In this document: piece by piece, positions 12,273 through 18,063 of the stretch
How positions within the stretch are numbered: position 1 is the first letter of the stretch
Layout of the letters: each line of letters begins with the position of its first letter
Origin: a virus
Strand: one strand, 5' to 3'
Virus record (IMG/VR): IMGVR_UViG_3300033821_000019
Coordinates: 1 to 64,000 of that record
DNA length: 64,000 nucleotides
The notes under the pieces: generated by a model
Told to the model about the DNA's origin: nothing
Databases searched by the model: none
Seen by the model: the letters and a program-made list of their open reading frames with translations, nothing else
Translations under genes and position numbers: made by a program

Positions 12273-14537
12273 CTAGTGTTTTGCCGCCCAAATAGTAACT
12301 CTGTTTATAAGTTGTTCCTCCTTACGTCTCCGCAATTCGGCACAAGCCACGTGCAACGCCAGCATTCCATTTTTATCTGCTACGCGCAATCTACTTATGT
12401 CATCAAACAAACCTTCAAGGCTTGTAGTTGACATACTTAAGATATTCGCGTATTTCTTTGTATCCACTTCACTAATATAATGATTGAGTACCGCGCCTTG
12501 GAATGCTGGACGTTCTACCCAACTTGCTTCAATATAGATACAAGATTTCGGGTCACCTTTCCTCTTTCCATCTGAACCAATAATTGTTCTACCACACAAT
12601 TCAGCTACGATACGATTGATGCCATTTTCATCTACGAAATATGTCATCAATTCATTATCTAAGTGATGGCAATTGGTACTAGCATCAGTGAATTCTTTAC
12701 CACATTTACTACATTGTGTGAAGTTTGCCTGACATCCCATTGACATAGTTGTTAATGCGCCTGATTCTATCTTTCGAATAAGGTCACTATGTTTTCTGTC
12801 CGTTGCAACTAAAATGTCCGTGTAGTAGACATTGGCCTTTTTACCAGTTTTGCTAGTATAAGCTACAGGACGCAGCACAGCATCAAGAATTTTCCCCTTG
12901 GATAATTCTGGAATCTGACAGTTATGAACTATAACACCTTCTGCTATATAAGAATTATCATTTTCTACTTCAAGATTAAATACATCACACTCCAAATCAA
13001 TTGTAGATACTTCTGTAATCTTTGAGGTTATGTATTTTTGATTTTCATGTTCAAATACATAAGTAAACTTTTGTTCTTGCCTTGCTTGGATGAGTACATT
13101 GTTGTAATTCAAAATTTCATCTAGCGATTTTGAATCTTGTACTGTAAATCTTAATAAATATCCGGGTCTTGATTTCTTTCCGGTATTGGGGTCAACGAAT
13201 ACTTGATATCCGTCTACTATTGTTTCTTCTGAATATCTCGGCAATACACCTGTTTCTTTGTATACGGGGTTCATTCCCAAACGCCAAGATATAAACATTA
13301 GTTGTTGAATCAGCGCCTTCGTCTTTAATTCAATACTATAACCACGTGACTCGCCTTTGTCTGTGCCGTCGCCATTGATTAAATGCTTCATAATTAATGC
13401 TTGTAGTTCCAAGGGCAACCATAACGCCGCATCATTAAGTTGTTTTGCCCAAGCATACTTACCACACCATTTTTTGAAGAATTCTGCAACTTTGATATTA
13501 CAAAGAGATACACACCAAGAACCACTTTCAGATTCATATACTCTAGGCTCGCAATCGCTTCTAAACAACTCTACAAATTCTGTAATTAAAAGTGATTTTA
13601 TTCTTTCTGCAACATCGCATTCGTCATTTCCAAGAGCAAATTGAACTCCCGACTCTCCATCATTAAATATATTTTGACTAGTAAAAGAACCTTCTGCCAA
13701 GAACCATCCTATTAACTCTGCACGATTCTTGTTTACTTCATTATTTTCTATTATAGTAGAAGAAACCGGATGAGTTAAGAAATCACGGTCTTTATTTATC
13801 TTCCCGGCATCTACCCATTGAGGTGTAAGTCCACAAGGATAATCTTCACCTTTTCTCTTATGAACACCTACAGTAAATCCGGTCCACTTATTCAGCGTCA
13901 AACCACTAAAATCAGGTGGATTGTTTGGTCGTCCTGTTTTTGGGCAAGTCTCTCTGGCGTGGTATACCCAAAATGGATGATTTGCGGTGACATACATATC
14001 CCTTGACAAAATTCCATTGCTTGTTATTTTTGTCAAAGAAGTAGATTTTCTAATTTGAACATTCTTTACAACATCTATATTTCCAAGCCTGTTGATAATT
14101 TTATCACCGGGTTTTATAGTCTCAATAGCTTGATAAGTTCCATTAGCCATTAAAACTCTAGTACCAGCCACAAAACAATGTTCAAGGTAATTTTCAGCAC
14201 CCACAAATGAACGGAAACAAGCCAGTAGAACTTCATCTGACCAGCCATTACCATTATTATTGACTAGTTCATCGGTAGGAGCTTTAACGTAGTAGCCATT
14301 TTCTTCCACATTGCAGCTTGATACAATACTACAATGACTGAATAAATATTTGTCTGCGCTGAACTTATTCCAATCTATATTTATATCTCTGGCGATTCTA
14401 ACATTGCCATTACCAGCATAGCTCCATTCCTTCTTTGGATTGTAAAGGATAGAGGCTATGGGCAAGTCAATTTCGAATGTTCTTGCTTTGTTAGAAGCTT
14501 CCAAAAGGCATTTATCGTTATCGCAGCGTCTATTCAT
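12273..14537 (-). CDS. Prohead maturation protease with intein
   Basis: Exteins NNNGNGW..., FVGAENYLEH|CQIPELSKGKILDA, TTMSMGC...CSKCG, EASWVERPAF, typical of HK97-type head proteases. Confidence 0.8.
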   Translation of the reverse strand: MNRRCDNDKCLLEASNKARTFEIDLPIASILYNPKKEWSYAGNGNVRIARDINIDWNKFSADKYLFSHCSIVSSCNVEENGYYVKAPTDELVNNNGNGWSDEVLLACFRSFVGAENYLEHCFVAGTRVLMANGTYQAIETIKPGDKIINRLGNIDVVKNVQIRKSTSLTKITSNGILSRDMYVTANHPFWVYHARETCPKTGRPNNPPDFSGLTLNKWTGFTVGVHKRKGEDYPCGLTPQWVDAGKINKDRDFLTHPVSSTIIENNEVNKNRAELIGWFLAEGSFTSQNIFNDGESGVQFALGNDECDVAERIKSLLITEFVELFRSDCEPRVYESESGSWCVSLCNIKVAEFFKKWCGKYAWAKQLNDAALWLPLELQALIMKHLINGDGTDKGESRGYSIELKTKALIQQLMFISWRLGMNPVYKETGVLPRYSEETIVDGYQVFVDPNTGKKSRPGYLLRFTVQDSKSLDEILNYNNVLIQARQEQKFTYVFEHENQKYITSKITEVSTIDLECDVFNLEVENDNSYIAEGVIVHNCQIPELSKGKILDAVLRPVAYTSKTGKKANVYYTDILVATDRKHSDLIRKIESGALTTMSMGCQANFTQCSKCGKEFTDASTNCHHLDNELMTYFVDENGINRIVAELCGRTIIGSDGKRKGDPKSCIYIEASWVERPAFQGAVLNHYISEVDTKKYANILSMSTTSLEGLFDDISRLRVADKNGMLALHVACAELRRRKEEQLINRVTIWAAKH
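12921..14177 (-). mobile_element. Intein (419 aa) with LAGLIDADG endonuclease in the prohead protease
   Basis: Starts CFVAGTRVLMANG; block B VTANHPF; LIGWFLAEGS and HLINGDG motifs; ends VFNLEVENDNSYIAEGVIVHN|C. Confidence 0.92.
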
Positions 14538-14541
14538 TGTT

Positions 14542-15255
14542 TTAACTCTTGATTTTGTCTTTTTTGGTGAGGTTATCTTTAGCCCACAAAGGTTGCAAAT
14601 TCATATAATTGAAACACTTTTTCTGTTCGTTCTCTTTTGTCAAATCAAACGCAGAACACGGAATAATGTGGTCAACGTGCCAGCCACGCAGTCCATGATT
14701 TTCCCAAGTCATTCCTTTTGTAAATTGTTTTTCAAGATGCTTTTTTAAATCTTCAATCGAACAACCCAACAATTTCGCAGTGTTATTCGATTTGGGTGTT
14801 TTTCGTAATGCAACAAGTATTCTGATTCTAAGACTGTTTTTTAGTCTGAATTCCGGGTCTGTTTTCATTTTCTCTTTGTAACGCAACCTAGCCATAAGTT
14901 TCCAATGTTCTGTGTTTTTTTCTCGCCATTCTTTATGTTGTTCATAAACTTTTTCTTTGTTTTTCTTGCTATAATCTTTTGCTTTTTCTATTCTTAGTTC
15001 TCTGTTCTTGCCATACCATATTTTATATTTTTCACTAATTTCTTTCTTTTTTGTTTGATACCTGTTTTTTGCATATTCTCTCATTCTTCCACCGTTCTCT
15101 CTCCATCTTTTTCTTGACATTTCTTTTTCATAGTTTTTAGCACAAGGAAGACAAGTGCCCTTGTTTTTCCTAAATTCTTCTATAGGCTTCATAAGATTGC
15201 AAATAGTACATTTTTTAAAAACGACTTTGCCTTCTGAGATGCTTCCAGAAGGCAT
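14542..15255 (-). CDS. Free-standing HNH homing endonuclease
   Basis: N-terminal CxxC...CxxC; C-terminal MTWENHG..WHVDHIIPC...CFNYMNLQPLWAKDN. Confidence 0.85.
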   Translation of the reverse strand: MPSGSISEGKVVFKKCTICNLMKPIEEFRKNKGTCLPCAKNYEKEMSRKRWRENGGRMREYAKNRYQTKKKEISEKYKIWYGKNRELRIEKAKDYSKKNKEKVYEQHKEWREKNTEHWKLMARLRYKEKMKTDPEFRLKNSLRIRILVALRKTPKSNNTAKLLGCSIEDLKKHLEKQFTKGMTWENHGLRGWHVDHIIPCSAFDLTKENEQKKCFNYMNLQPLWAKDNLTKKDKIKS

Positions 15256-15287
15256 TTATCACTATTGCAACGACGCAATTCAGTCAC
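15189..15287 (-). pseudogene. Orphaned duplicate of the protease 5' end (32-aa mini-ORF)
   Basis: GAGGT RBS + GTG; encodes MTELRRCNSDKCLLEASQKAKSF..., versus protease MNRRCDNDKCLLEASNKARTF. Confidence 0.7.
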
Positions 15288-15353
15288 GATATTATACCTC
15301 TTACAAGCAATGTTGGGAGAGGGTCTAATATAATGACCCTCCCCCATAGTGAC

Positions 15354-15656
15354 TTATACGTTTGAAGCGTTGTTGCTATTGACGTTGTAAGCCGATTTCA
15401 CAGGCTTACGAACAAGGTCCACGCCATTCTTAAGGACACCGGCTGGTTTCTTGCCCATGCCTTCGTCATTCATGGTTTCCGTATCAATGGTAGGCTGTTT
15501 CTTTCCACCTAGAGCATTGACTTGGAAATAACCGGCTGGCGTTGCAACTTTTGCAGCCTTCTCGTAATCCTGTTCCACTTCATTAGCTAACGCACGTGCT
15601 TTACCAGCGCACGGTGCCTGATAGCTCTTTCTATTGAATGATGCTGGTGCTGGCAT
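15354..15656 (-). CDS. Hypothetical (probably virion) protein
   Basis: 100-aa ORF with AAGGAG RBS in the head module. Confidence 0.65.
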   Translation of the reverse strand: MPAPASFNRKSYQAPCAGKARALANEVEQDYEKAAKVATPAGYFQVNALGGKKQPTIDTETMNDEGMGKKPAGVLKNGVDLVRKPVKSAYNVNSNNASNV

Positions 15657-15734
15657 TTTCTTTCTCCTTTTTCTATGGTTTCCTTTATCTACACAATTCT
15701 AACGGTTCAATAATGTCCACGTTTTGAACGTAGT

Positions 15735-16217
15735 TTAATCGTCGTAATTTATTGCCTGTTTTAGCATTGAGAAAAATTCACCGACTTGGCTCGACTGATT
15801 CTTTGGTCCATGTTTTCTCGCAAATTCGCCGCTAAATTTTCCTTCCACAATAGCCTTAGCATGTTGAAGAACTTTGTTTTTCCATGGTGCCTTTGACTTG
15901 CCCAAAGCTTTAACTACATTGATGAAATTTTCTTTTGAAGGAGCTTTGGTTATCAATTTATTTACTTCTGTAATCCCTTCATCGTCTTTATGCGGAGTTT
16001 TAACAACATCATCAAACCAAGCATCTGTATGCGAGTCAAAAGTTCCAGACTTAGATTTATTCTCTTCTGGCTTCGTCTTTACTACTTTGTGATTTCTCTT
16101 ATCAGCATCAGGATGTTCCTTGAGATAGACTTGCATAGCTCTATCCGTTGGGAAATCAATGGCCAATAAACTCTGAGCTACTTTAATTAATTCTGAGGCT
16201 ACTAGTCTCTTATCCAT
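15735..16217 (-). CDS. Tagged hypothetical protein
   Basis: MDKRLVASELIKVAQSLLA. Confidence 0.75.
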   Translation of the reverse strand: MDKRLVASELIKVAQSLLAIDFPTDRAMQVYLKEHPDADKRNHKVVKTKPEENKSKSGTFDSHTDAWFDDVVKTPHKDDEGITEVNKLITKAPSKENFINVVKALGKSKAPWKNKVLQHAKAIVEGKFSGEFARKHGPKNQSSQVGEFFSMLKQAINYDD

Positions 16218-16228
16218 TTGTTTTTCCT

Positions 16229-16462
16229 TTATATGACTTTGTTAGACGGTATTTTCCAACCACAGCCAGGACAAATGTAAATTTTAACACCCCTCGAAAA
16301 TGGTTGGCGTTCCATAATATCTTTACATTTAGGACATATACAAGACTCTTTTTCTACTTCACCTTTTGAACGCTTGTAAACTCTTCCAACATCATGATGA
16401 TAAACAGCCAATAAACTTCTGGCTACTTTAATTAGTTCTGACGCTACTAATTTCTTGTCCAT
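16229..16462 (-). CDS. Tagged zinc-ribbon protein
   Basis: MDKKLVASELIKVARSLLA; CPKC...CPGC. Confidence 0.75.
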   Translation of the reverse strand: MDKKLVASELIKVARSLLAVYHHDVGRVYKRSKGEVEKESCICPKCKDIMERQPFSRGVKIYICPGCGWKIPSNKVI

Positions 16463-17067: not shown

Positions 17068-18063
17068 CTAGCGTATCTCTGTCGAGCAAGACCACTTACG
17101 AATCAACCTCAAATCTATGCCGTTAGGAGACATCCACTTGTATAGCTTTCTGGCTCTTTGTGCGTAGATATTAAAAGAGAAAAAGGTTGTTTTATTAGGT
17201 GTTTTTGAAATTTTTGGTGCTTTGCCGCCAACGACTTCTATTATCCTACATTTTAACCAAACCATAAACCGTTTATCAGTACATCCGAAACCCATTCTAT
17301 ACCCATCTTTAGAGCGCGTACCATCACCATCAAAAAATCCTCTCACAAAATGTCTCACAAATCGCTTAGGTATTTTGGGGATGCCTACTCCTACGAATGA
17401 CTTACGTTGTATCAGGCCATATCGCTTAAATTTTTCATACACCCACACGCAGTTTGTAGACAATGCCCAATAAGTTTTTCCTTTTACTACACAAGGACAT
17501 GGCTTTGCTTTCAACCCCATCCTTATACGTATGTCATCCAGAATTTGTTTGTCTTTTGAACTGATGCCACAAATCGGCATAATCCTATCTTTTCTTCCAT
17601 ATCCCTTCTTAAAATATTTTCCAGTTGTTCCATCTGCCCACATATATCCTAAAACATATGCCAAGTCATTACTCCATTTGAAAAACGATTTATCTACTGA
17701 TGTATCGGCCCTCCTGTTAAAGCCAACGTACTTTCCATTTCTTTTTATGAAACCTATGACGATATCATTAGTTGAATTGATAAGAGGAGCAATTTTTGAT
17801 GTACTAATTTGTGGGTACATATTGTAAATAATGCTTTTTTGTTCTTCGGTTAAATTTGTTGGCTTTGAACCTCTTTGGTCTGGCGGGCCTTCTATCTTGA
17901 ATTTTTTAGCCCATTTTCTTACTATTCCTTCTGATAATTTTAGTTGAATGGATGATTGTTTCCATCCGTCAATTTTTAATCGTTTGAGAAGGAAACTTCT
18001 TATCGCTTCTTTGCGTGTTTTTTCTATAAGCGTTTCTACCATTATTTTATCTCTATTTTCCAT
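17068..18063 (-). CDS. Free-standing LAGLIDADG homing endonuclease with N-terminal HTH
   Basis: AYVLGYMWADG and HFVRGFFDGDG motifs. Confidence 0.9.
   Translation of the reverse strand: MENRDKIMVETLIEKTRKEAIRSFLLKRLKIDGWKQSSIQLKLSEGIVRKWAKKFKIEGPPDQRGSKPTNLTEEQKSIIYNMYPQISTSKIAPLINSTNDIVIGFIKRNGKYVGFNRRADTSVDKSFFKWSNDLAYVLGYMWADGTTGKYFKKGYGRKDRIMPICGISSKDKQILDDIRIRMGLKAKPCPCVVKGKTYWALSTNCVWVYEKFKRYGLIQRKSFVGVGIPKIPKRFVRHFVRGFFDGDGTRSKDGYRMGFGCTDKRFMVWLKCRIIEVVGGKAPKISKTPNKTTFFSFNIYAQRARKLYKWMSPNGIDLRLIRKWSCSTEIR

Follow-up and report, generated by a model that had tools for sequence, protein, structure and literature searches.

A phage prohead protease gene with two starts, probably left by the entry of a free-standing HNH endonuclease gene

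The sequence analyzed here (the window) is a stretch of 64,000 nucleotides (nt) from the 78-kb IMG/VR virus record IMGVR_UViG_3300033821_000019, a metagenome assembly from an uncultured phage. Within this window, a free-standing HNH homing endonuclease gene has probably entered an essential late gene, that for a prohead (head maturation) protease, after codon 23 by double-strand-break repair, bringing with it the start of the protease gene of a donor phage. The foreign segment comprises the first ~21 to 33 codons of the present gene, and the original start lies stranded upstream as a 32-codon orphan, while the protease gene itself stays whole and unsplit and needs no splicing. On the minus strand, the small conserved gene gpX (positions 15354 to 15656) is followed by the orphan start (copy A; 15189 to 15287), the HNH gene (14542 to 15255), and the protease gene (12273 to 14537), which opens with a second version of the same start (copy B). 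The orphan open reading frame (ORF), the HNH ATG lying inside it in another frame, and the duplicated gene start had already been described in an initial annotation of this DNA, and all of them are found at these coordinates on this strand. The 78-kb record is estimated to be about one-third complete, and its source is therefore a large phage.

RESULTS AND DISCUSSION

Comparison with an HNH-free relative separates resident from foreign sequence

The closest comparison is provided by L027, a metagenome contig from an HNH-free relative that shares ~86% DNA identity with the window on both sides of the locus. In L027, gpX is followed directly by the protease gene, which has a single start reading GTG-DNV-RRCNSDKCLLEASQKAKSF-TIDLP. 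Over the 57 bases coding RRC..F, this start matches copy A at 54 positions without a single amino acid change, whereas copy B matches it at only 40 of 57 (Fisher P = 0.001). The window departs from L027 exactly after ...AAGTCGTTT, where the HNH sequence starts: homology to the HNH-free allele stops after position 15219 (the TTT of F23), placing the left junction at 15218/15219 on the minus strand. The inserted block extends from there to copy B codon 21 (15218 to 14475; 744 nt), its placement in the L027 alignment being uncertain within a 2-nt TT ambiguity. Divergence does not end with copy B, as the ~12 codons that follow it are 69% identical to L027. The whole 93-nt tract adjoining the HNH gene thus matches L027 at 65 of 93 positions (70%), compared to 225 of 261 (86%) in the rest of the N-extein (Fisher P = 0.0009), the pattern of a co-converted flanking tract. 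Away from this tract, identity to L027 is 86% in gpX, 88.5% in the spacer between gpX and the protease gene, 86% in the bulk of the N-extein and in most of the C-extein, and 87% over ~2 kb downstream. The comparison identifies copy A as the resident start and marks the HNH gene, copy B, and a short further tract as foreign.

The HNH gene is polymorphic in presence at this position, being absent from L027 and from 30 further relatives. Relatives with complete genes have gpX and then directly the protease gene, and no second copy of the protease start was found upstream of the protease gene in the 31 relatives surveyed, each represented by a locus with the protease gene.

Copy A (RRCNSDKCLLEASQKAKSF) and copy B (RRCDNDKCLLEASNKARTF) share 14 of 19 residues and 41 of 57 bases. 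Their differences are mostly synonymous, with a proportion of synonymous differences (pS) of 0.77 and a proportion of nonsynonymous differences (pN) of 0.15, indicating that the two copies diverged as working genes in separate lineages and not after duplication in place. The likeness between them exceeds chance: when the protease N terminus was used as a query against the phage's own 78-kb record, copy A was matched at an E value of 4.6e-5, and the translated local alignment of the two copies scores 81, compared to a maximum of 42 among 30 shuffles. A two-residue insertion common to both copies is not present in more distant relatives, which suggests that the donor came from the same subgroup of phages.

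These results bear out the core of the initial annotation. It had noted that the copies are alike in protein and different in codons, which the counts above uphold, and had expected HNH-free relatives to carry one copy rather than both; L027 and all 31 loci have a single start, and both copies occurred together in none of them. Its proposal that the endonuclease gene entered the protease coding region without an intron or intein, bringing a replacement N terminus along, agrees with the break in homology to L027 at the HNH junction and with the lack of an Rfam intron. Its description of copy B as recoded requires revision: the divergence of the copies stands, but recoding in place does not, and copy B is better read as a start from a diverged donor phage.

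Anatomy of the old and new starts

The resident start region (15189 to 15300, minus strand) retains a Shine-Dalgarno (SD) sequence, GAGGT (15300 to 15296), and a GTG start codon at 15287, and its ORF ends at a TGA stop (15191 to 15189). The 32 codons of this orphan comprise 23 protease codons, up to position 15219, and 9 codons contributed by HNH DNA. Within copy A, a predicted 10-bp RNA hairpin (15228 to 15254, minus strand) pairs the UG of the HNH AUG. This hairpin is native to the 5' end of A-type protease genes and is missing from copy B, with folding z-scores of -2.5 in the window and -3.8 in L027, compared to +0.7 for the copy B region. The corresponding inverted repeat of 9 to 10 bp lies within the first 25 codons of A-type protease genes (15228 to 15254 on the minus strand of the window; L027:659-685) and is lost from copy B. 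It could serve to regulate translation or belong to the endonuclease target.

The donor-derived start (14439 to 14537, minus strand) consists of an ATG at 14537, codons 1 to 21 of copy B (to 14475), and the ~12 further divergent codons. Its ATG lies four bases past the HNH stop, and its weak SD sequence (AAGAG) sits within the 3' end of the HNH gene. From this ATG, copy B runs in frame into a complete protease ORF, and the MNRRC start that it encodes is the norm in about 40 relatives. The downstream ORF spans the full length of the relatives' proteases, and the upstream piece repeats residues that are already there.

The protease itself (754 amino acids [aa]; 12273 to 14537, minus strand; PHROG phrog_18299) contains an intein of 419 aa that the initial annotation did not mention. 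This intein occupies residues 121 to 539 (12921 to 14177, minus strand), comprises Hint and LAGLIDADG-type regions, and is bounded by EH/CFVAGT...VHN/CQIPE (slashes mark the splice junctions), leaving exteins at 14178 to 14537 and 12273 to 12920. It was assigned on the basis of its splice-junction residues, of intein-free relatives, whose proteases are 326 to 335 aa long, and of matches to Pfam Intein_splicing, Hom_end_hint, Vint, and Hint_2 at E values of 5e-07 to 3e-04, all of them below curated cutoffs. The L027 protease carries its own intein at another site (L027:1178-2434; MSMG/C..N/CQANW, compared to EH/C..N/CQIPE in the window), and neither phage has an intein at the site used by the other. 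Identity falls to 76% over the 186 nt that separate these sites, against a background of 86%, as expected for co-conversion tracts. The 710-aa protease of a further relative, L007, also contains an intein.

A proposed route of entry

We propose that the donor phage would have carried the HNH gene just upstream of its own protease gene and that the HNH enzyme would have cut the HNH-free allele near codon 23. The right end of the break would then have been repaired by homology within the protease gene, with ~12 further codons being converted to donor sequence, while the left end would have been joined at or near the break without upstream homology, i.e., by one-sided, illegitimate double-strand-break repair. 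Once formed, the block would have homology on both flanks and could therefore spread by ordinary homing.

A stronger version of this proposal, to which we give some credence while thinking it rather unlikely, is that the block is an actively mobile gene-start replacement element. In this case, the HNH enzyme would cut the conserved RRC...CLLEA-coding start of protease genes that lack the endonuclease and spread together with a resistant substitute start, and it would be translated only via the orphaned initiation region, either from the -1-frame AUG, held in the resident hairpin until ribosomes translating the orphan unfold it, or through -1 slippage at A_AAA_AAU. Production of the HNH enzyme would in that case follow the late expression of the invaded gene. 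The nuclease activity and its target, the resistance of the carrier alleles, and the route of HNH translation are inferences. Resistance of copy B to cleavage, as suggested in the initial annotation, would be consistent with the sequence, as 12 of 33 bases around the insertion point differ from the A-type allele.

Alternative explanations for the duplicated start

Ordinary mosaic recombination between two phages could also have produced this arrangement, with the HNH gene as a passenger or as a domesticated (e.g., packaging-associated) nuclease and with an illegitimate crossover giving rise incidentally to the orphan start. Nonhoming roles are possible for HNH genes close to head and packaging genes, and an HNH gene without its own SD sequence would fit such a passenger. 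We nevertheless regard this explanation as improbable. The absence of the HNH gene from relatives at this position indicates that it is not a conserved morphogenesis component, and the short foreign tract lies immediately next to the HNH gene, as expected of co-conversion. Moreover, the same protease gene is host to an intein, and this spot is occupied by other endonuclease genes in relatives. In the distant relative L013, a GIY-YIG/NUMOD3 gene (L013:5013-5846) ends 1 nt before the protease start, with no duplicate start upstream of it, and in L007 (L007:1699-2301; also in L049) a gene of the same HNH family (38% identity; E = 4e-48) is located one gene further up, upstream of gpX. Since the record is a metagenome assembly, an apparent duplicate might instead have been created by the misjoining of two coexisting strains. 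Such a chimera is very unlikely, because copies A and B share no identical run longer than 12 nt, which would not be enough to mislead an assembler, because protease and HNH DNA overlap by just 2 nt at the left junction, and because identical HNH and protease proteins occur in records from JGI, Logan, and ENA assemblies. The same HNH is recorded on a 10.6-kb Logan/ENA contig.

Two similar segments 744 nt apart might also suggest that the gene start was duplicated in tandem at its own site, that the copies then diverged, and that the HNH gene was inserted between them later. This can hardly be reconciled with a synonymous divergence that is near saturation while the peptide is kept, with a copy A that is nearly identical to the orthologous start in L027, or with the restriction of the duplicate to this phage among the relatives; a nonfunctional duplicate would not be expected to keep its peptide. 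We assign next to no probability to a last explanation, in which the protease truly starts at copy A and the block is either a group I or group II intron or a segment bypassed by ribosomes. An intact protease would indeed result if copy A, up to F23, were continued with codon 22 of the downstream gene. However, a search of Rfam across positions 14000 to 15800 on both strands gave no match at E values of ≤1, and a ribozyme would have no space in the block, since the HNH ORF and copy B take up all of it except the 4 nt that separate the HNH stop from the new protease ATG. The protease ORF, furthermore, opens with an ATG of its own, the MNRRC start being the family norm, and 744 nt lies far beyond the known ribosomal bypass of 50 nt. 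Three related candidates were likewise rejected: a group I or II intron with an endonuclease gene, for which there is no ribozyme core; an intein formed by the HNH block, which has stop codons on either side, is read in the -1 frame with respect to copy A, and gives no match to a Hint domain; and a gene split into two required pieces, as the downstream ORF is complete by itself. Entry of the HNH gene together with a donor start remains our preferred explanation.

The HNH gene product and its expression

The HNH gene (14542 to 15255, minus strand) encodes a protein of 237 aa with a CxxC-x15-CxxC zinc finger, a long helical middle, and a C-terminal HNH motif. It matches the PHROG family phrog_1035, "endonuclease VII" (E = 1.5e-11), and belongs to a family with 3,162 homologues at E values of ≤1e-10. 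The motif WHVDHIIPC...NLQPLW..DN is present, and D195, H196, N219, and N228 are invariant in an alignment of 41 sequences; C19 and C38 of the zinc finger are also among the invariant residues of the family, and all invariant positions are kept in the window. Structure models have a predicted local distance difference test (pLDDT) score of 90 for the whole protein and of 79 for the C-terminal domain. The top-ranked structures returned by Foldseek are HNH and beta-beta-alpha-Me nucleases (ZRANB3, PtuB, pyocins, colicin E7, Cas9, and I-HmuI), every one of them at an E value of ≥0.88, and a sequence search of the PDB with the HNH protein gave a weak zinc finger match only. An exact search for the left junction returned no match in a set of viral contigs from which near-identical records may be missing, and no flanking duplicate was found around 8 other members of the HNH family. 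A weak match in L020 was rejected, as it lies between tandem paralogous genes and is not a gene-end duplicate.

A TAA immediately precedes the HNH ATG (15255), which falls within copy A, in its -1 frame. Residues 1 to 13 are consequently read from resident protease DNA in the -1 frame, where L027 reads MPSGSISEGKVVYN-stop. Residues 1 to 10 have low pLDDT scores, and the N-terminal residues are predicted to be disordered. Many homologues begin 3 to 6 residues before the first zinc finger cysteine, some of them with MKKC, and the window has TTT AAA AAA TGT at this place, which suggests that the HNH gene's own start codon was lost at the junction. Judging from the anatomy of the locus, coupled translation from the old start, as proposed in the initial annotation, is plausible, and we consider the AUG at 15255, read in the -1 frame within the orphan, to be the likeliest start for the HNH gene: it is the only one that keeps the invariant zinc finger cysteines. 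This AUG is partly buried in the resident hairpin, and ribosomes on the orphan ORF, loaded from its strong SD sequence, would open the structure that holds its UG.

Two other routes appear less likely. An A_AAA_AAT heptamer (15210 to 15216, minus strand), read from the sequence, lies in the copy A frame, where a -1 slip would, speculatively, reach the HNH frame just before the zinc finger. With no stimulatory structure nearby and no second example, frameshifting is a minor possibility only. The stop codon of copy A also overlaps Met22 of the HNH gene in an ATGA sequence (15189 to 15192, minus strand), and other gene callers use this Met22 as the start of a 216-aa product. Reinitiation there would drop C16 and C19, which are invariant or near invariant, so an active enzyme would be unlikely.

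Several of the observations on this gene and its surroundings weigh against our proposal of HNH-driven entry. The protein has no close HNH relative, its nearest nonself homologue being 58% identical, and the Pfam HNH profile matches below threshold (E = 0.52). Neither the Foldseek search described above nor a wide structural search of the HNH model with VIA-align, which was dominated by long helices, produced a significant match. The gene lacks an SD sequence of its own, and it may be a stranded, poorly expressed, or dead copy. The arrangement was found in a single instance, and a donor lineage with a B-type start (MNRRCDNDKCLLEASNKARTFEIDLPIAS) was not found in viral contigs, in metagenome contigs, or in a set of 5.8 billion proteins. 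Finally, the higher divergence of the 5' tract is partly nonsynonymous and could in part reflect weaker constraint.

Relation to known endonuclease insertions

The closest parallel is gene-end replacement by mobile ORFs (mORFs) in fungal mitochondria, described for atp6 of Allomyces macrogynus and for atp6, atp9, cox2, and nad3 of Glomus sp., in which the incoming endonuclease gene is accompanied by a foreign version of the C-terminal part of the invaded gene, and the displaced native part persists as an orphan matching the endonuclease-free sister species (PMC3630166). As in these cases, the endonuclease ORF in the window adjoins a foreign copy of one end of the invaded gene, fused in frame to the resident body, and the native end is kept as an orphan that matches an endonuclease-free relative (54 of 57 nt and no amino acid changes). 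The degree of divergence is also comparable: in Glomus atp6, the orphan is 91% identical to the endonuclease-free relative and 63.5% identical to the foreign copy, compared to 95% and 72% here. However, all described cases are mitochondrial, affect the 3' end of a gene, and involve LAGLIDADG or GIY-YIG endonucleases, whereas the present one is in a phage, affects the 5' end, and involves an HNH gene, and it thus falls outside the described set. The 5' position has consequences of its own: the invaded gene depends on the block for a new start codon and ribosome-binding site, and a live-looking start is stranded upstream, overlapping the start of the endonuclease gene. No phage or gene-start precedent for gene-end replacement was found in the literature, which is weak evidence of absence; a Xanthomonas phage paper considered as a precedent concerns tail fiber domain repeats.

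Phages provide three further points of comparison. In T4-like phages, intronless homing is known for the free-standing endonucleases SegF, SegG, MobE, and others (PMC2988022). Like SegF, SegG, and MobE, the HNH gene is free-standing, variably present, and located beside a conserved essential gene with a foreign flanking tract. Those genes are located between genes, whereas the HNH gene lies inside a coding region, flanked by two versions of the same gene segment. Endonuclease insertions have also produced genes in pieces, as in nrdA/mobE of Aeh1, gene 60/mobA of T4, and gene 43 of phage 25 (PMC2988022). These resemble the window in that an endonuclease gene is inserted in a coding region without an intron or intein, but they split the host gene into two reassembling polypeptides, whereas the protease ORF in the window is complete by itself, with a redundant orphan of 23 codons left upstream. 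Lastly, one-sided illegitimate repair is documented in T4 intron homing (PMC2988022) and offers a route to a new site with homology on one side and a microhomology junction, as proposed here. It was observed in an experimental system with an intron, and its relevance to the window is suggested by the anatomy of the junctions.

Neighboring genes

Upstream of the resident start, gpX (15354 to 15656, minus strand) encodes 100 aa and has homologues just upstream of the protease gene in L004 to L006 and in L027. Between gpX and the resident protease start, an 11-bp stem-loop (15315 to 15345, minus strand), read from the sequence, is conserved in the alignment to L027. The window and L027 cease to be homologous ~60 nt upstream of gpX (~15720 on the minus strand of the window; ~210 in L027), and the genes beyond are unrelated, marking another mosaic boundary. 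Past this boundary, the genes at 15735 to 16217 and 16229 to 16462 (minus strand) open with the near-identical peptides MDK[RK]LVASELIKVA[QR]SLLA, and similar leaders occur on several genes upstream of the relatives' protease genes. A free-standing LAGLIDADG endonuclease gene of 331 aa (17068 to 18063, minus strand; Pfam LAGLIDADG_3; PHROG phrog_4645, E = 1e-26) lies 1.8 kb upstream and is the third endonuclease-type element within 6 kb.

Implications for phage genomes

The usual view is that homing endonuclease genes can invade a coding region without harm only as part of an intron or intein or, failing that, by splitting the gene. The locus described here appears to show a third route in phage, that of carrying a substitute gene end. 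A mechanism described at 3' gene ends in fungal mitochondria would thereby be extended to a viral gene, to the HNH family, and to a 5' end. Such elements create short orphan ORFs and chimeric gene starts, which mislead both annotation and phylogeny. The L027-type and window-type alleles form a natural pair for mapping the HNH target. Together with the two different inteins in the window and in L027, the block singles out the gene for the prohead protease as a hot spot for selfish elements.

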